Assembly (NCBI GenBank): GCA_965218095.1
Contig: OZ244587.1
Location: forward strand, 96,001 to 160,000
Direction of reading: 5' to 3'
DNA from: Candidatus Poribacteria bacterium
Lineage (GTDB): Bacteria; Poribacteria; WGA-4E; PCPOR2b
DNA length: 64,000 nt
Below are positions 41,096 through 50,997 of the stretch, piece by piece. A model generated the notes under the pieces. That model had not been told where the DNA came from. It saw only the letters and a list, made by a program, of their open reading frames with translations, and did not search any database. Position 1 is the stretch's first letter; each line of letters opens with the position of its first letter. The translations under genes and the position numbers were made by a program.

Positions 41096-41839
41096 GTGGT
41101 TGATGGGGTGATTTATGTCATTGGTGGGGTAAATTGGTGGCTGCCCACACCCATGCGCAGTACCGTTGAAGCGTATGACTCCGTAACCGATACGTGGTCA
41201 GAAAAGGCGGACATGTCAGCGCCGAAGGCGTGGCTGACTACCGCAGCGGTCAATGGAAGAATCTACGCCATCGGCGGTATGCAGAGGCTCCCCAATGGGG
41301 ATTGGACAATATTGGACGACGTCGAAGAATACGACCGTGTGAGAGATGTGTGGACGAAAAAGCAGGACATGCCGGCCCCAAGAGCTTTCTTAGGGGCTGC
41401 GGTCGTTGATGATAGAATTTATGTCACTGACGGCTTTGGTGTTGAATTTCTCTTGTCGAGGGTCGAAATCTACACTCCCGCTAAGGACAGGTGGAGCAAC
41501 GGGAGCCTGATGCCGATGCCACTAGAAACTGTCAAAGTCGGGGTAGATGGAAAAATCTATGTGATTGGCGGTGAGAACACATCGCCGCTTGTGGAAATTT
41601 ACGATACCACAACCCGAAAATGGTCGGTGGGAACTCAGATGCCAACGGGCAGAGACCGTTTATCGACCAGTGTGGTCAATGGAAAAATCTATGCCATTGG
41701 TGGCGCGAATGCAGACCTAGACGCGGCATACAAGACGGTAGAAGTCTACGACCCTCAAGGCGACCCCAATGAGCCATTCGCGGTTTCTCCACAAGGCAGG
41801 TTGGCAACGATGTGGGGAGAGATAAAAGAGCGCCATTAG
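41096..41839 (+). CDS. Kelch-repeat protein, probably 5'-truncated
   Basis: Five Kelch repeats (GxIYxIGG...VExYD...W). It begins mid-repeat with no signal peptide and ends in AVSPQGRLATMWGEIK. Confidence 0.8.
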   Translation: MVDGVIYVIGGVNWWLPTPMRSTVEAYDSVTDTWSEKADMSAPKAWLTTAAVNGRIYAIGGMQRLPNGDWTILDDVEEYDRVRDVWTKKQDMPAPRAFLGAAVVDDRIYVTDGFGVEFLLSRVEIYTPAKDRWSNGSLMPMPLETVKVGVDGKIYVIGGENTSPLVEIYDTTTRKWSVGTQMPTGRDRLSTSVVNGKIYAIGGANADLDAAYKTVEVYDPQGDPNEPFAVSPQGRLATMWGEIKERH

Positions 41840-42060: not shown

Positions 42061-42307
42061 TGTCACTAACGTGTGAAAGCCTTTTGGGGTCTCCCTCTCC
42101 GCTTAGGCAGTTGCCAAAGCGGTGCTGGCGCCACATAGCAGAACAGTTGTCTGACACGCCATTGATGATCTGTTATCCCGGCGACCGTCGCCGGCGTGTA
42201 TTCACCCATCTTTCTTTCCTCCTAAAAAAAGAATGTCAGAGAGTGTGTCCCGAAAATTCCCAGTGGGACACACTTTCTGAGTGATGAAATTTCTTCTGCC
42301 AAAAGTT

Positions 42308-43360
42308 TCAGAACGAACGTGACATCGTAAGGGAAACAGTTGTTCCGAGTTCAAAAGCGTCACCTTCATCTGATAATGTCCTTCGGTGCAATGGCAGCAT
42401 AACGGAAAAGCGTGTTGGTATGTCGTATCCAGCATTCACCGTTGTACCGAACAACACTGCATTGAGTACTAAACCTGAGTTAATATCCCGCTCACCGTCC
42501 CAGTGGGCGTAGGATTGGTAAAACCCCAGATAGGTCGTATGAAGCGCAAGCCAATCTAGCAGGTGATATTTCACTTCTGCTGTCGAAGTTACTTCCACAG
42601 ACCCACGATAGGTTTTGCTGTTTTCATAGAACGGAAATTGCCCTCTGACAGAAGCACTCAGCGAAAAATCACTAAAGAGTGGCGTTCCGTAATGTAGTTC
42701 AGCCAATGGATTGAACGTCCTTGTTCCAAACTGGATATGGAGATGTTCCAATCCAGCATCACCCAACTCGAATGGGTTTTCCTCTGTCTTGCCTATCGGA
42801 ATGCTCGTTCCCAGTGATGCAACCAGGTCGTCGCTTTCGCGCAAGACACCAAACCTTCTGTGAGAAAACAGAAGCCTGAAATCGGAGAATCCTCGATAGG
42901 TTTCATCGCGGTGGTGGATATTCTGGTTTGCAAGTATCGCCCCGCGCTCGCGGGGGGACGTGGATTCAATTTCCTCAACGCTTGCGTCCTGACTCTTGAT
43001 TCCATAAGGCACACTGAGTAAGACTTCCCAGCTATCAGCTATGCTATACCCAATGCCCAAATCCACACGAAGAAAATCAAGAGAGACAAGGTGTCTGTGC
43101 AGTGGTGACTTAATAACTTGCCGAGTCGGGGAAAGTCCCTTCGTCTCTAAATGTCCACCGTCAGAGTCAAAACCTCTTAGTACATTGAGAGAGACCCGAA
43201 ATTTACGTGTGTCTTCTGAAGCCGAACCGACTTCATCTATCCCGCTACGCGGAATTGCGGGATTGCTTCAAGCGCCGCACGATTCTTGACCGAATGCAAA
43301 CGGCAAGAGATGGAAGAAACCAAGTAGCAGCGTGGTTAAAAAGACTGTCGTTTTCATCAT
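42308..43360 (-). CDS. putative selenocysteine-containing (CxxU) outer-membrane beta-barrel protein
   Basis: GAGGTG RBS, ATG 43360, signal peptide ending AFG, then QES-C-G-A-TGA (43268-70) with the same frame open to 42308. Amphipathic strands, terminal Phe and a SECIS-like hairpin. Confidence 0.75.
43239..43255 (-). promoter_or_regulatory. putative bacterial SECIS element
   Basis: AUUCCGC-GUA-GCGGGAU, loop at +20..+22 after the UGA, the same position as in the UGSC gene. Confidence 0.65.
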
Positions 43361-43456
43361 TCACCTCAAGTAATCAATGAATAGAAATAAATAGAGCGAT
43401 GCACTAAGGCTGTCAATTGAGAATCAAAGACTGACAAAGCCTCAGAAACTGTAAAA

Positions 43457-43903
43457 TTAGATATGAGAAAATTTGGGAGGTGAATGCGGTGGGGCGCGAG
43501 GGGAAGCCTGACAGATAGGAAAATATTCGTAGAAATTTAGGAATGGTCGAGGTCGGAGAGTGGTTTCATAAGAAGAAGAGAAAGCAGAAGGGGAAGGAAG
43601 TATGACGGTTAGCGAAAATGTTGTGTGAAATAGCTTGCTCAAATCCAAATCGTTAGATTCGTTTGGGATGGTGAGTTTCAATCCAACGAAGCAACAGTTT
43701 CCAATTTGAGGCTTTTCCTGTTGAGGCGTATTTTTAGTCCCTGTGTTGCAGTGATTTGAGCAGCTTGGGCATGATGGGATTTTTCCAATTGAGGTGGAGT
43801 CCAGGACAGAGAATCCACAATCCCCCTGCATGAGGGCTGGACAGAGATTGTAGAATGAAAAGCCGAAAAGGAAAAGGATAGATATAATTGGCTTTATCTT
43901 CAT
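43457..43903 (-). CDS. Cys-rich leader protein with C-terminal RAPP motif (DUF2946/CruR-like)
   Basis: N-terminal hydrophobic segment, CPSCSNHC and CC clusters, C-terminal SPRAPP; upstream of an outer-membrane protein gene. Confidence 0.7.
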   Translation of the reverse strand: MKIKPIISILFLFGFSFYNLCPALMQGDCGFSVLDSTSIGKIPSCPSCSNHCNTGTKNTPQQEKPQIGNCCFVGLKLTIPNESNDLDLSKLFHTTFSLTVILPSPSAFSSSYETTLRPRPFLNFYEYFPICQASPRAPPHSPPKFSHI

Positions 43904-43947
43904 CGTTGATTTAGCTCTACGAGGTGTTGTGAAGGGCAATGGACAAG

Positions 43948-46818: not shown

Positions 46819-47949
46819 TTATTTTTCGATAAGGAATAGGAATTCTCTATTTGGCAGTTCCGCATCGCTTAGCCATTCATTGGTCCAGCACATTCTAGCC
46901 ATCACGTTCTTTTTGTAATCGATTTCTATCACATCCAAGAGCGTACCGTTCGCCCTGATGACCTCGTTGAGCTCATCCGCTGTTGCGCGACCGCCAGAGC
47001 TGTATGACAAGATGACGAACTTGGCTTGCACCCTTCTGATGAGACGCTCAATTGCCTCAACCGCGACAAATTGACCGCTACCATCACGGCGGAATTCTTC
47101 AAAAACGGATGATGCAACCTTGTCGGATGTGTCTGTTCTTCGTTTCGCTTTTCCAAAGAGTTCCGCCCGATCGTAAAGGCAGATGCTTGTCCAAATGTGA
47201 TAGTAAGCGGCGTATCGCACCCGTGAAGGCGGCATCTTCTCGCTATTAGAACCGTAAGGCGGATCGAGATATGCCAAATCTACATCGACATCATTGATTA
47301 TCTCAAAGACATCAGCACGAGACACCTGATGCTCATGCTCGGTCGAAAAGAGCATCGGCACCCTTAACTGAAGATGATTGTAAGATCGAGGAGACCAGTC
47401 TTTGAGGTATGAGGCGAAATGCCCAAGGGTGCTATCAACTTTATCAAGTGCAAGAATCAGACTCGTTATGGCGACCGCTTTATCAACAGTCTCGAGATGG
47501 AGAGATTCTATTTCATCACGGATGCCATCCAGCTTTCTTGTGTTGTGTATTTGCCAAGGCTTCTTCATGCCATCCGACTGAATCGCCGATCCGCCATTCG
47601 GCAGCCCACCGTAGTGTTCGGTGAACCAACCATCAACCGGCTTTGTGTGATTGAGGTGAGCTATCAGCTCCTTATATGCATCCGGTCTCTTTTGGGTTCG
47701 CAAGTAGCAGTCGCCCAAAACCTCAGACCACACGGCGATGTCGTTGCAATAAACGCTGTATCCCGATTTGGCAAAGGCTTGAGAGACACGGGTGGTGCCT
47801 GAAAAGGCGTCAAATACCGTCTCTGCTTTAACTCGTTTAGCGAGTTGGAGAATATATGGGAGCAACTTGAGTTTTGAGCCGGCATATTTGATGCCTTCTG
47901 TGGGTGGCGCGTCAACGACAAGCTCATCAAATAGTGATCGTGCCTGCAT
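46819..47949 (-). CDS. D12-class N6-adenine DNA methyltransferase
   Basis: KYAGSKLKLL, motif I FDAFSGT and motif IV YLDPPY in alpha order. ATG 47949 overlaps an upstream TAA. Confidence 0.9.
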   Translation of the reverse strand: MQARSLFDELVVDAPPTEGIKYAGSKLKLLPYILQLAKRVKAETVFDAFSGTTRVSQAFAKSGYSVYCNDIAVWSEVLGDCYLRTQKRPDAYKELIAHLNHTKPVDGWFTEHYGGLPNGGSAIQSDGMKKPWQIHNTRKLDGIRDEIESLHLETVDKAVAITSLILALDKVDSTLGHFASYLKDWSPRSYNHLQLRVPMLFSTEHEHQVSRADVFEIINDVDVDLAYLDPPYGSNSEKMPPSRVRYAAYYHIWTSICLYDRAELFGKAKRRTDTSDKVASSVFEEFRRDGSGQFVAVEAIERLIRRVQAKFVILSYSSGGRATADELNEVIRANGTLLDVIEIDYKKNVMARMCWTNEWLSDAELPNREFLFLIEK

Positions 47950-48330
47950 TATTGACCCATCCCTGATATCTTCTTGAGTTGAAAAATATCTTCTTTGACT
48001 TTTTCGAGAGCCCCCTGATGGCCAGCTTCGGAAGATACCAGAGCGTGAGAGAATAGCTTTACGAGAACGAGGTTGTGTGAATAGTCGATCCAACCATTGG
48101 TAATGCTATCAAAGTATTTCAACCCCTTTTTGGTATGAGTCCAAAGGCCACGTTGTAAGGATTAGTAGTCGTCATAGTGATAAATTTCTGCCCAACTCTT
48201 GATTAGACGGATTTTTTCGCATCACACAATACCAGAGGTGTTATACGGAATTTTGCTGATAAACGGCTGGTTAAGTGCTGTACGACTTGAATTTTAATGA
48301 TGCTCTCGCGTTTGTTTATTTGACCTCTTG
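47949..48330 (-). pseudogene. degraded gene coupled to the MTase (probable restriction endonuclease relic)
   Basis: Open C-terminal stretch RGLWTHTKKG...KISGMGQ* ending in a TAATG overlap, with an internal TAA and a frameshift upstream. Confidence 0.45.
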
Positions 48331-48397
48331 GAGTTGGTCAGCCAACCATAAATTGGCCAATGTTTCGGGTAAAACTCCCTACACACGCGCTCGTGTT

Positions 48398-49567
48398 TCA
48401 ATCCGTAGCAATGCCAAGCTCGGATACGTCGATCTCGCCGGAGATGAATTTCGGGAGCAGCAGATCGCGGGTTTGGCGTAGGTTGGCGTTTTTAAGATCT
48501 AAAGCAACAATGTTATCAAAAATAGGTTCAATCATTTTGTTGAATCTGTCTAACAAACTTTGCGGAGGCGAAAGGGTTGGAATCCTATTCAGATTGTGTT
48601 GGTTAATCTTTGGCTGTGCGGTGCCTGTAATATAACTCGAAATGGCTACGTTGGACATGAACAAATAAAGAAAGTTTGTCGAAATCGGAGCTTTTCCTTG
48701 AACGACATGTGTATGATTATTTACCCAGAATTTACCAGTTACTAACTGTAGTACAGGCTTCCCATCTTCGGTAATAACACTGCCATCTTCCGCAATTAAT
48801 AAATACCTCCCATCAAATAGATAACCGTTGATATGATCTAAGATTTTAGCAGCACCATAATATGGATATTCACCTTGCATGGTGGATCTAGCCATCCCTG
48901 ACAGTGGTTTCCGCTGACGATCAAAGTTAAGGGAAACTTCGCCAAAGCTCTTTACCTCCCACCCCTGCGGTATCAACCCCAACTCCGACTCCACCATCTC
49001 CACCTGCTCATGTCTCGGAAAGCGGAACTCGACAAACCATTGTCGGTAGATTGTTTGCGCCATCTCCTCAAGGATCTTGATGCGGCGGGTGTTGTTTTCA
49101 ATCAAGTCGTCGTAGGGACTGAGGACTGCGGCGATTTTGCGTTGGATTTGGTAAGGTGGTAGGGATAATCTTATTGCTTTCAGATTTGCTTGCGATAGCT
49201 TAGGCTGTGCAGTTCCTGTAATATAGCCTGAGATATTAGCAGACTGGATATAGCTCATCAAAAAATAATCGTCAGCAACTCCGGGTATACCTTGAACAAT
49301 ATGAGCATGATTATTGACCCAGAATTTGCCGGATGCAAAGAAGGCGATAGGTGTCTTTCTTTCCACGAGGTTTGCGCCATCTTCAGAAATCAGCAAGTAT
49401 CCTCTATCGAAAATATAATCATCAATGTAATCAATAATTCCCGATGCCCCGTAATACGGATACTTTCCCTGCCTTTGACTTCTCTGCTTGGTACTCAAAG
49501 GTATGCGTTTGTGATCGTAGAGTTCAATCACTTCACCGAAAGTTGTCTCTGTCCACGAATCTGTCAT
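48398..49567 (-). CDS. hsdS: type I restriction-modification specificity subunit
   Basis: Two TRDs separated by PPYQIQRKIAAVLS...DDLIENN; C-terminal RDLLLPKFISGEIDV. Confidence 0.92.
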   Translation of the reverse strand: MTDSWTETTFGEVIELYDHKRIPLSTKQRSQRQGKYPYYGASGIIDYIDDYIFDRGYLLISEDGANLVERKTPIAFFASGKFWVNNHAHIVQGIPGVADDYFLMSYIQSANISGYITGTAQPKLSQANLKAIRLSLPPYQIQRKIAAVLSPYDDLIENNTRRIKILEEMAQTIYRQWFVEFRFPRHEQVEMVESELGLIPQGWEVKSFGEVSLNFDRQRKPLSGMARSTMQGEYPYYGAAKILDHINGYLFDGRYLLIAEDGSVITEDGKPVLQLVTGKFWVNNHTHVVQGKAPISTNFLYLFMSNVAISSYITGTAQPKINQHNLNRIPTLSPPQSLLDRFNKMIEPIFDNIVALDLKNANLRQTRDLLLPKFISGEIDVSELGIATD

Positions 49568-49619
49568 ACCGTCTCCCATACCGTCTCCTCCAAAATCATC
49601 ACGACATTCCTGATTTATT

Positions 49620-49950: not shown

Positions 49951-50997
49951 TTAGCGTGGGAGCGAGATTTGATTCGGAACGACAATTTCACCGGCAATGA
50001 TTCTTGCTTTCAGCGATTCAACGGTTTCTAAAATTTCGTCCGAAAGCAAAGATTGGTTGTGTTCATCAACGGCATAGCCGACTCCGCCATCTGCGAGTCC
50101 GAGGTATCGGACCCCTGCCATAAAATTGCTGTCAACGGTTTCACTGATGATTCCATACACAGAATCCTCAATCTGTTTGACCATGCTCGTCAAGACTATC
50201 CCGGGTGCGAGATGATTGCCATTGGAGTCAACCCAAATGACATATTTTTCCTGCTCTTGGGCGGCTTCAAGGATGCCCAGACCGGACCCGCCAGCAACGG
50301 CGAAAATGACATCAATTCCGCTCTCATATTGCGTTAACGCCATCTCTTTCGCCGTATCCGGCTGACTGAAACCACCTACATCCTCGCTGATGTATTCTAT
50401 GGAAACTGCCGCGTCTGGACTGACAGCCTGAACTCCGGCGATGTATCCGGCTTCAAATTCTTGTAATAAGGGGGCGTCCGCCCCGCCAATATAGCCAATT
50501 TTATCGCTCTCTGTTTTTAACGCGGCAATCGCCCCGACCAGAAATGAGCCTTCGTTTGCCTTATAGTTGATGGCGGCGACATTGGGAAGTTCAAGGACAA
50601 CATCAACAATTGCAAATTTGACATCGGGAAAGTCGGGCGCCACGCGAGAGAGCGGCCCGCCCATTTGGAAACCCGCAGTTAAAACGAGGTCTGAATTTTG
50701 AGCGGCCTCTCTTAACAGCATTTCTGTCACTACCGGATCGCTCTCCATTCCAATAACCTCGTTGAGGGTAATCCCGAGTTCTGCCTCCGCACGTTTTACT
50801 CCAATATAGAGACTGTCGCAGTAAGATGAATCCCCAACGCAATCGTCTGGATACATCATGGTTACGCGAATCGGCGCGGTATCCGGTCCGCTTGGCTGTT
50901 CAGAAAGGATGGCTTCCCGAACTAAGTCACAACTACAGATTAAAAATAGCCCTAGCGCCCAAAAGGGGTATTTTCTCAAGATGCTAAGATTTTTCAT
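49951..50997 (-). CDS. BMP family ABC transporter substrate-binding lipoprotein
   Basis: Lipobox ICSC; NEGSFLVG, KIGYIGG, IDVIFAVAGGSG and IWVDSN motifs. Confidence 0.9.
   Translation of the reverse strand: MKNLSILRKYPFWALGLFLICSCDLVREAILSEQPSGPDTAPIRVTMMYPDDCVGDSSYCDSLYIGVKRAEAELGITLNEVIGMESDPVVTEMLLREAAQNSDLVLTAGFQMGGPLSRVAPDFPDVKFAIVDVVLELPNVAAINYKANEGSFLVGAIAALKTESDKIGYIGGADAPLLQEFEAGYIAGVQAVSPDAAVSIEYISEDVGGFSQPDTAKEMALTQYESGIDVIFAVAGGSGLGILEAAQEQEKYVIWVDSNGNHLAPGIVLTSMVKQIEDSVYGIISETVDSNFMAGVRYLGLADGGVGYAVDEHNQSLLSDEILETVESLKARIIAGEIVVPNQISLPR

Follow-up and report, generated by a model that had tools for sequence, protein, structure and literature searches.

Where a reverse-strand gene in a Candidatus Poribacteria genome begins, and whether an in-frame TGA near its 5′ end is read as selenocysteine (Sec), is the question raised by the locus at 42308..43360 (-) of the 64,000-nucleotide stretch analysed here (the window; C1:96001-160000 of the source genome, a single 6.35 Mb contig, GenBank OZ244587.1 of assembly GCA_965218095.1). 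All positions are those of the window unless another contig or locus is named. The standard open-reading frame (ORF) call starts at a GTG at 43066 and spans 42308..43066 (-), giving a protein of 252 aa. A first-pass annotation, made from the letters alone, had argued that the frame extends beyond this start, through a TGA, to an ATG with a GAGGTG ribosome-binding site, and this is what the sequence contains: upstream of GTG 43066 the same frame is open, by way of the single TGA at 43270-43268, as far as an ATG at 43360-43358. The coding part of the full gene occupies 43360..42311 (-), 350 codons followed by a TGA stop at 42310-42308. With the internal TGA translated as U, the product reads MMKTTVFLTTLLLGFFHLLPFAFG followed by QESCGAU and SNPAIPRSG and ends after 350 residues in SRSF, with the terminal Phe that the first-pass annotation had given. 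We conclude that the mis-annotated gene is real, that it codes for one exported outer-membrane barrel protein, and that it is almost certainly a selenoprotein gene.

Translation may begin one codon further in. The ATG at 43360-43358 is the first of a tandem pair, the second lying at 43357-43355, and the ribosome-binding site GAGGTG at 43362..43367 (-) leaves 3 nt between its GAGG core and the first ATG, and 6 nt to the second. The closest relatives (L025-L028) share this GAGGTGA-ATG arrangement, and one of them, L026, has only the second ATG. Because of the 6-nt spacing and the L026 sequence, the second ATG is possibly the true start, which would give 349 codons and a protein of 349 aa. Residues 1-24 (MMKTTVFLTTLLLGFFHLLPFAFG, 43289..43360 (-)) form a predicted signal peptide with Ala at -3 and Gly at -1, which exists solely when the TGA is read through, as had been proposed; the TGA connects this presequence, through the local sequence Q-E-S-C-G-A-U-S-N-P, to the barrel.

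The in-frame TGA and its decoding

A six-frame search of 41 genomes (G000 and 40 relatives) found the barrel protein in 25 of them, as 33 full-length match rows, every one of which carries in-frame TGA, 27 of them twice and 6 once; a further three rows, short or weak, carry none. In the 20 relatives' loci that were translated, the motif reads Q-E-S-[U/C]-x-A-U-S-N-P (UGAU in 16, CGAU in 2, CAAU in 1 and CPAU in 1), with TGA at the position of codon 31 in all 20. A scan of GTDB species genomes returned 230 relatives, and among the best 80 of these, labelled Candidatus or uncultured Poribacteria or 'uncultured bacterium' (the Poribacteria loci below), the second motif position, Sec31 in the window gene (43268..43270 (-)), is TGA in 80/80. 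The first position, Cys28 in the window gene (codon TGC, 43277..43279 (-)), is TGA in 48, TGT in 27 and TGC in 5 of the same loci, giving the two-Sec form UxxU in 48/80, so that most relatives of the window protein would carry two Sec residues, a point that the first-pass annotation missed. The 80-locus and 41-genome sets overlap and their genomes are related, and the counts measure conservation, not independent events. Few parts of the protein are as well conserved as the residues flanking the TGA (Q-E-S-x-x-A-U-S-N-P), and the C-terminal residue is Phe in 71 and Leu in 9 of the 80 Poribacteria loci.

Outside this group, some homologues have cysteine in place of the Sec codon. A profile search of 1.84 billion representatives gave 479 matches at E up to 1e-3, and among the 16 that align from the N-terminus and were fetched as full-length distant homologues, 14 have C-x-x-C-[SRQG]-N-P at the motif. 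The other two (P0165 and P0173) have Trp at the TGA-equivalent positions (S-W-G-A-W-S-N-P and C-S-L-W-S-N-P, respectively). Because P0165 is close to locus L043, whose DNA has TGA, these Trp residues are best taken as a gene caller's reading of TGA, and some annotation pipelines seem to have used a code in which TGA is Trp on these contigs. A metagenome scan with the Cys forms returned 222 relatives; the best 80 were examined, and the motif was readable in 70, the other ten being cut or too diverged. Among the readable loci, 48 are UxxU (mostly U-P-A-U), 20 are CxxC and 2 are CxxU, with TGA at the second position in 50/70. The homologues therefore show Cys or TGA at this position and none of the residues (Trp, Arg, Gly or Ser) that would have spoken against Sec, with the two Trp entries read as TGA miscalls, and the TGA is far from unique to this assembly. 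An in-frame start, Lys or Arg and a hydrophobic core precede the motif, with no stop in between, in 80/80 Poribacteria loci (median 25 residues), and the same type of presequence is present in 61 of 65 metagenome loci. The 80/80 counts for the TGA and for the open upstream frame greatly exceed what chance would give.

The same data bear on whether the TGA is a true stop, in which case the barrel would be translated from GTG 43066 (252 aa), or the locus would be a pseudogene or an assembly error. Standard ORF calling does give 42308..43066, and public annotation agrees with it: a word-indexed search of public proteins gave 510 proteins at E up to 1e-3, and among the matches listed (at least 120) the entries cover at most 90% of the read-through protein, are 237-321 aa long, are unnamed or called 'hypothetical protein', and are every one cut at the N-terminus and without a signal peptide. 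A product of 252 aa, however, would lack both the signal peptide and the first three barrel strands, in 80/80 loci a start and a signal-like presequence lie in an open upstream frame, conservation around the TGA is among the strongest in the protein, and the TGA exchanges solely with Cys codons. A true stop is very improbable in light of these observations, and the N-terminal cuts in the listed public entries indicate that gene callers cut the family at the TGA throughout.

The source genome encodes the machinery for Sec insertion, with selA (605.7 bits), selB (353.7 bits), selC and selD (371.1 bits) all above curated cut-offs. The tRNA-Sec scores 76.6 bits against a gathering score of 47, is called SeC(tca) (94 nt) by ARAGORN, and is adjoined by selB. 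The selD gene (C1:5447425-5448348 (-), L021) has an in-frame TGA of its own in the motif C-G-U-A-A-K, and an fdhA-like gene (C1:3662305-3663093 (-), L125) has one in the motif U-H-A-P. The conserved TGA, the Cys homologues and this machinery support the earlier proposal of a hidden CxxU selenoprotein, and, on the strength of sequence comparison, Sec is very probably inserted at UGA 43270-43268. A genome-wide reassignment of TGA was rejected, as TGA is an ordinary stop here that closes 536 of 1373 frames of at least 400 codons and is absent in frame from seven annotated neighbour genes. The true stops of the family genes in the 80 Poribacteria loci are TAA in 43, TAG in 20 and TGA in 17.

The genome also carries a 75-nt tRNA(UCA) at C1:4577829-4577903 (-) (L213:2030-2104; Rfam tRNA, 58.3 bits), within a tRNA cluster that lies 1.3 kb from a group II intron catalytic domain (RF00029, 55.5 bits, L213:3446-3522 (-)). 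No other tRNA-Arg(UCG) was found in the source genome, and tRNA(UCA) is either a potential opal suppressor or an assembly error. Its canonical size and its detection by both ARAGORN and Rfam in a tRNA cluster would suit a UGA read, in this strain, by an ordinary suppressor and not by tRNA-Sec. The orthologue, however, is tRNA-Arg(UCG) in 8/8 relatives checked (the gene is held by 40 of the 41 genomes), so UCA is a single change or an assembly error; a suppressor also cannot account for a TGA kept across the family, and TGA is still the commonest stop of long frames. The A36 change presumably removes an arginyl-tRNA synthetase identity element, and charging of the tRNA is doubtful. We consider decoding by this tRNA extremely improbable.

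In four sponge metatranscriptome runs from one study (X1-X4), no contig bridges the TGA with 31 nt on each side and none reaches the gene start. The contigs are short: some represent stretches of the gene body (42296-43063), others are minute (43113-43148 and 43229-43282), and carry-over of DNA is possible.

Hairpins 3′ of the UGA

The first-pass annotation had described a GUA-loop hairpin of 7 bp that starts 13 nt past the UGA, and we confirmed it at 43255-43239. This hairpin 1, AUUCCGC-GUA-GCGGGAU (43239..43255 (-)), is a candidate selenocysteine insertion sequence (SECIS) with 7 bp including one U.G pair and a free energy (dG) of -7.1 kcal/mol when folded alone; its stem begins at the 13th nt after the UGA and its loop at the 20th (19 nt from UGA to loop). 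The spacing matches that of the selD and fdhA-like genes of the same genome, whose hairpins start at nt 10 (loop AGUU) and nt 12 (loop GGUCU) after the UGA, respectively. The bacterial SECIS consensus in a May 2026 review (PMC13188914) has a stem of 4-16 bp, a loop of 3-9 nt with G in the first two loop positions, a distance of 16-37 nt from the UGA and a minimum free energy of -7.5 or lower. By this standard hairpin 1 has its spacing in range and G first in the loop, with its dG of -7.1 just short of -7.5.

Two further elements appear when the region is folded without constraint. An alternative 5′ arm, AUCCCGC (43257..43263 (-)), pairs with the 3′ arm of hairpin 1 (dG -10.3, 11-nt loop) and is preferred by the unconstrained fold; its start is 14 nt past codon 28, where most relatives have an additional UGA. 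The same fold adds hairpin 2, GAAGUCG-GUU-CGGCUUC (43218..43234 (-)), whose loop begins 41 nt after the UGA and which the first-pass annotation had not noticed. Conservation was assessed in 81 sequences, 76 of them distinct, with a control in which the partner was slid by 1-3 columns. The core of hairpin 1 (pairs 28-31/35-38) is paired in 91.4% of cells, and hairpin 2 in 99.4%, against 28-52% in the slid controls, making hairpin 2 the best-conserved RNA element. Pair 58/62 of hairpin 2 is A-U in 59 sequences and G-C in 14, and pair 56/64 is U-A in 45, U-G in 30 and C-G in 1. In the 20-sequence set, two hairpin 2 pairs have changed on both sides, in 4 and 6 sequences (C-G to U-A in 4/20), and since these two-sided changes also replace amino acids (G-S to S-L), they speak for selection at the RNA level. 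The loop region is AGUUU in 60/81, GGUUC in 14/81 and other sequences in 7/81, an (A/G)GUU pattern like the AGUU loop of selD.

Folding of the 76 distinct sequences with the part of the mRNA under the ribosome masked gave a helix 12-14 nt downstream of a ribosome on the second UGA in 46/46 UxxU genes, 25/26 CPAU genes and 4/4 CGAU or CAAU genes (75/76). With the ribosome on the first motif codon, a helix at this distance formed in 36/46 UxxU, 0/26 CPAU and 2/4 CGAU or CAAU genes. On this pattern, a single 3′ arm may serve both UGAs, which are 9 nt apart, by pairing with either of two 5′ arms set 8 nt apart, with the caveats that the CPAU genes are one clade and that conserved Asn-Pro, Ile-Pro and Gly codons make up the arms. 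For the question of how two such closely spaced UGA codons are decoded in bacteria, the family is a natural test case.

Several observations weigh against these RNA assignments. The single-sequence fold is unexceptional (z -1.32, with 20 of 200 shuffles as stable), hairpin 1 alone is slightly weaker than the consensus energy, its loop is not conserved, and its stem consists of Pro and Gly codons that are complementary anyway; hairpin 2, at 40 nt from the UGA, lies beyond the 16-37 nt range of the consensus (PMC13188914). Either hairpin is a candidate for the SelB-binding element, and the roles given to both are deduced from folding and conservation.

Predicted fold and family of the barrel

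The window protein matches no Pfam family and no NCBIfam release 20 model at E up to 1. AlphaFold was run with 20 aligned homologues (predicted local distance difference test, pLDDT, 75.5) and with 35 diverse sequences (pLDDT 85.3, predicted template-modelling score 0.80), and the model has 12 long strands and two loop helices: the one in loop 131-152 ends at His149-His150, and the other, a short one in loop 188-217, precedes His206 and His208. Foldseek ranked FapF and a COG4313 channel at the top (E about 1e-11). In VIA-align, the best match was the COG4313 channel 4rl8 (Z 24.2, root-mean-square deviation 2.6 Å over 252 residues, model 38-350 against chain 1-268), followed by FapF (Z 22.9) and autotransporter barrels (Z 17-20). 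The two models and these matches agree with the outer-membrane beta-barrel of the first-pass annotation and support a 12-stranded channel fold of the COG4313/FapF type. The N-terminal plug that had been expected along with the barrel was not placed, the tail lying below pLDDT 50-56. The Sec motif is on this tail, which is roughly 30 residues long, and residues 18-30 and 40-48 stay below pLDDT 50 in the 35-sequence model despite its deeper alignment. The match to 4rl8 starts at model residue 38, equivalent to chain residue 1, and the tail, with its low pLDDT, is aligned with the inserted segment.

In 35 sequences with identities as low as 26%, the residues that never vary are U/C28, U/C31, N33, P34, H70, H90, P118, H149, H150, D160, G184, P188, P196, H206, H208, Q210, G212 and W287. 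Two Sec/Cys positions and six histidines (70, 90, 149, 150, 206 and 208) are therefore invariant family-wide. The His clusters HRH, IHHRDE and EHLHIQ, which the first-pass annotation had assigned to loops, are all present, but HRH is modelled in beta-strand 2.

PF13557 (Phenol_MetA_deg), the Pfam family of the COG4313 channels (Pput2725, 4rl8), gave weak scores for 6 of the public matches listed (at least 120) and for the Cys homologue P0260 (19.3 bits against a cut-off of 22, the most that any relative reached), and the ESM Atlas clusters nearest to the window protein carry PF13557. In contrast, the window protein itself has no Pfam match and shares 10% sequence identity with the channel, and its family has a tail about twice as long with an invariant C/U-x-x-C/U-x-N-P, six invariant His and two loop helices. 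In Pput2725, the N-terminal ~14 residues are folded into the lumen, which they enter at the periplasmic face (PMC4493636). FapF (5o65), a 12-stranded plugged barrel with a helical plug inside (PMC5557850), aligns by its residues 97-406 with model 42-350, and the model helix 42-47 was read as the plug region; the coiled-coil periplasmic domain and fap operon of FapF are absent from the window system, and FapF has no Cys/Sec motif.

The 2026 review tabulates 119 prokaryotic selenoprotein families, among which the window family is not listed and the outer-membrane entries are solely NF041027 and NF049945 (PMC13188914). These catalogued barrels, the FCYXU TonB-dependent receptor and GSU2204/MtrB-PioB, are likewise outer-membrane Sec proteins, the receptor with CxxU, but they have other folds and sizes (a 22-stranded receptor and an MtrB/PioB porin), and in that table neither is listed with two Sec; UxxU is tabulated for Prx-like proteins, the NF041115 metal-binding protein and FmdB (PMC13188914). 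NCBIfam models gave no match for 9 of 10 Cys homologues, HMA matches on P0137 being the sole exception, and Pfam models likewise gave none above cut-off apart from HMA on P0137. A full-text literature search found no description of the barrel family, which supplementary tables of selenoprotein surveys could still list. The earlier statement that this is not a described selenoprotein family agrees with Pfam, NCBIfam release 20 and the review table (PMC13188914).

The family is present in marine and soil metagenome contigs, with Cys forms in lineages labelled Myxococcota and Bacteroidota (source names, ESM Atlas), and because its reach extends beyond sponge symbionts the mis-annotation is systematic. 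These COG4313-like outer-membrane barrels, whose tail is UxxU, CxxU or CxxC, form an uncatalogued and widely distributed family, which is new as a family and belongs to known kinds of system. It adds to the known selenoproteins a family, mostly with two Sec, that is absent from the 119-family catalogue (PMC13188914) and from the NCBI annotation models. The Cys forms may make its function testable, given a cultivable carrier.

Gene neighbourhoods and a proposed role in soft-metal handling

Genes linked or fused to the family point to metals. One Cys homologue, P0137 (442 aa), ends in an HMA domain (PF00403, cut-off 24.8 bits) that scores 43.3 bits. Of six representatives of the gene that immediately precedes the barrel, in the same orientation, in the metagenome loci, four encode a secreted protein in which HMA (38.8-51.8 bits) is combined with thioredoxin (42-52 bits); in the CAGC subgroup, the upstream protein combines a Cys-rich N-terminus with thioredoxin. 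Among the 47 metagenome loci with at least 900 nt of upstream sequence, such an HMA-thioredoxin partner precedes the barrel in 30 (CxxC 13/13, CxxU 1/1 and UxxU 16/33), and of these 30 partners, 27 have G[MILV]xCxxC and all 30 have W[CS]xPC. Of the remaining 17 loci, 3 have an HMA-like upstream protein when TGA is read through, one of them with TGA in the metal motif.

In L186, a protein of ~200 aa directly upstream of the barrel has a Cys-rich N-terminal half, an HMA-like end and a TGA in the motif G-V-T-U-Q-A-C, and its counterparts in L200 and L206 have Cys at the TGA position, which makes another Sec/Cys metal-site pair beside the barrel.

The thioredoxin half of the partner can also be read differently. 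The Cys/Sec pair might be a redox switch whose selenylsulfide (diselenide in UxxU) locks or releases a plug, gating some other substrate such as hydrophobic molecules, with thioredoxin resetting it. CxxC and CxxU are classic redox motifs, and most uncharacterised selenoproteins are probably redox proteins according to the review (PMC13188914); a thioredoxin domain with WCGPC is present in 30/30 of the partners found, 14 of 47 loci have no metal-domain neighbour, and the N-terminus of the COG4313 channel occludes the lumen and FapF has a movable plug (PMC4493636, PMC5557850). Left unexplained by a switch are the six invariant histidines, the HMA fusion of P0137, the HMA half of the partner (27/30 with G[MILV]xCxxC) and the position of the CPAU paralogue, described below, at the head of a CusA/CzcA operon with a YHS protein. 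We judge a redox switch improbable. The earlier suggestion of a metal- or redox-gated channel fits the neighbourhoods and the HMA fusion, and is itself conjecture.

The CPAU paralogue, found in 29 of the 80 Poribacteria loci, also links the family to a metal system. A small Cys-rich protein precedes it in 29/29 loci, and after it come a His/Met-rich YHS-domain protein (20 loci) and outer-membrane efflux protein (OEP) genes (18 loci). In one genome, the operon runs from the Cys-rich protein through the barrel, the YHS protein (31.8 bits against 30.3) and two OEP genes to a CusB-like adaptor with three HMBD repeats (103.6 bits) and a CusA/CzcA pump (941.1 bits against 701.45). The paralogue is the second gene of this operon, which otherwise resembles CusCBA/CzcCBA systems in its OEP, adaptor and pump; the window copy lies outside such an operon. 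To our knowledge, a barrel of this kind is not known as an extra component of Cus or Czc systems.

At the window locus, a co-directional gene for a small Cys-rich protein lies upstream of the barrel at 43457..43903 (-), coding for 148 aa with an N-terminal hydrophobic segment from an ATG at 43903 (the ORF list uses a TTG start at 43939). Genes that are 49-51% identical occupy the same position in L045, L047 and L048, a conserved partner that the first-pass annotation had missed. The protein has no Pfam or NCBIfam match. It matches weakly (E 7e-4) the protein that precedes the CPAU paralogue, and the two types share 16 invariant columns, including Y-x-x-C-P, C, CC and R-x-P-P. From this comparison, the small Cys-rich protein is the probable partner of the barrel. 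The window copy is a CGAU form close to the UGAU genes, and PhnE-like and PhnC-like ATP-binding cassette (ABC) genes lie further upstream of the Cys-rich gene.

UGAU genes, the commonest Poribacteria form (48/80), are mostly flanked by an aldo-keto reductase upstream (34 loci) and, on the other side, by a family-5 substrate-binding protein (31 loci) with an ABC permease (28 loci). The reductase, found upstream of 34 of the 48 UGAU genes, is one of the points that would suit an outer-membrane oxidoreductase, in which electrons would pass from a thioredoxin-type partner to the Cys/Sec pair and on to a His-held substrate (Cu(II) to Cu(I), Hg(II), selenite or tellurite, or peroxide). Sec is typical of catalytic redox sites (PMC13188914), the partner has a thioredoxin fold, and the His cluster could hold Cu(II). 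On the other hand, the protein has no cofactor-binding domain and an electron route to the outer membrane was not found in the analysis; the aldo-keto reductase representative matched Aldo_ket_red alone and is probably cytoplasmic; and, autotransporter barrels aside, the top matches of the channel fold include no relatives known as enzymes. An oxidoreductase is unlikely, though it overlaps with metal handling and the two cannot be separated by sequence.

On balance, the best overall explanation appears to be a Sec-decoded, exported barrel with a soft-metal site made up of the Cys/Sec pair and histidines, an account we favour with restraint, and for handling of soft (thiophilic) metals as the function itself our confidence is about even. 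The fusion in P0137, the HMA-thioredoxin partners and the CusA/CzcA operon link the family to metal genes, a link that is absent at the window locus. Other findings also pull away from this explanation. The window copy is outside any metal locus, its neighbours being the Cys-rich protein and the PhnC/PhnE-like ABC transporter; the neighbourhood of the UGAU form is uninformative on metals; in 14/47 metagenome loci, the 1.1 kb upstream contains neither an HMA nor a thioredoxin gene on the strand of the barrel; and a search of the source genome with one HMA-thioredoxin query did not find the fusion. Tail residues 18-48 lie below pLDDT 50-56 in both models, which do not support a placement in the lumen or contact with the histidines. 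The solved COG4313 channels are considered to be carriers of hydrophobic molecules (PMC4493636), in contrast to the metal genes linked to the window family.

The soft-metal explanation would work as follows. tRNA-Sec and SelB would decode UGA 43270-43268 under the direction of the hairpin starting 13 nt past it, and the N-terminal tail, with the start Q-E-S-C-G-A-U-S-N-P, would sit in the barrel lumen from the periplasmic side, as in structural relatives. The Cys/Sec pair (Sec/Sec in most relatives) and the six invariant His would form a binding or relay site for Cu(I), Ag(I) or Hg(II), and the barrel would move or buffer thiophilic metals across the outer membrane, in a direction that can only be surmised. 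A periplasmic partner, which would be the secreted HMA-thioredoxin fusion in many other lineages and the small Cys-rich protein here and in the CPAU paralogue, would keep the Cys/Sec pair reduced and/or hand over the metal. Selenols have a low pKa, exchange ligands and disulfides quickly, resist irreversible over-oxidation and bind soft metals strongly, properties that suit an oxidising compartment. Periplasmic thioredoxins reduce metal-binding Cys pairs, as TlpA does with ScoI and CoxB, and ScsC is a further example; the barrel and its thioredoxin partner would follow the same logic, with the difference that here the thioredoxin is fused to HMA and the target would be a Sec-containing outer-membrane barrel.

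The HMA/CopZ/MerP proteins and NF041115 have a Sec/Cys soft-metal pair with x-x spacing, and the two-Sec UxxU is listed for NF041115 in the review table (PMC13188914). The HMA domain occurs in the barrel's partners and in one barrel fusion, and the source genome has two exported UxxC HMA proteins; the barrel motif, by contrast, is on a disordered tail and not in a ferredoxin-like HMA fold, and shows no sequence similarity to these proteins.

The two HMA proteins of the source genome are small, CopZ/MerP-like and exported, with lipoprotein-like signals (L226:160-516 (+) and L227:229-591 (-)), and the first Cys of their motifs is an in-frame TGA (G-I-A-U-G-G-C and G-M-T-U-G-A-C; E 1e-13 to 1e-19). 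The NF041115 model gives them 48.8 and 65 bits, below its cut-off of 95, and they are probably UxxC relatives of that known UxxU metal-binding selenoprotein.

A more elaborate joint reading, which we put forward tentatively and consider doubtful as a whole, is that of a two-part envelope system not yet described together with a re-registering SECIS. In its first part, the diselenide-forming U-x-x-U of a plug-like tail and a ring of six His would pass metals by selenolate ligand exchange, and the HMA-thioredoxin would recharge the pair. In its second part, the two 5′ arms 8 nt apart would alternate on one 3′ arm, placing a hairpin 12-14 nt past whichever UGA is in the ribosome, with the invariant hairpin 2 and its selD-like (A/G)GUU loop kept at a constant effective distance. 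Two things in this family are out of the ordinary: an outer-membrane channel has Sec in its tail and a dedicated HMA-thioredoxin partner, and a re-registering hairpin perhaps serves a pair of UGAs spaced 9 nt apart. Sec on the periplasmic tail of such a channel, in an oxidising compartment and tied to metal-binding and efflux genes, suggests an unrecognised outer-membrane step in copper-like metal homeostasis.

Other features of the neighbourhood were recorded alongside these. Downstream of the barrel gene, a 47-codon ORF at 42069-42209 (-) has a strong AGGAGG site, starts 100 nt past the barrel stop and ends in TAG; its frame continues through TGA codons after the TAG, and it has the appearance of a gene fragment. 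The opposite strand carries, at 41096-41839 (+), a gene for a Kelch-repeat protein (147.5 bits, 5 repeats) that converges on the barrel gene. Between the PhnC/PhnE-like ABC genes and a PnrA/Bmp-type binding protein (49951-50997) lie, at 46819-49579 (-), genes for a D12-class N6-adenine DNA methyltransferase (82.1 bits) and a type I restriction-modification specificity subunit (131.3 bits). Related loci also have genes for ankyrin and leucine-rich repeat proteins and sulfatases.

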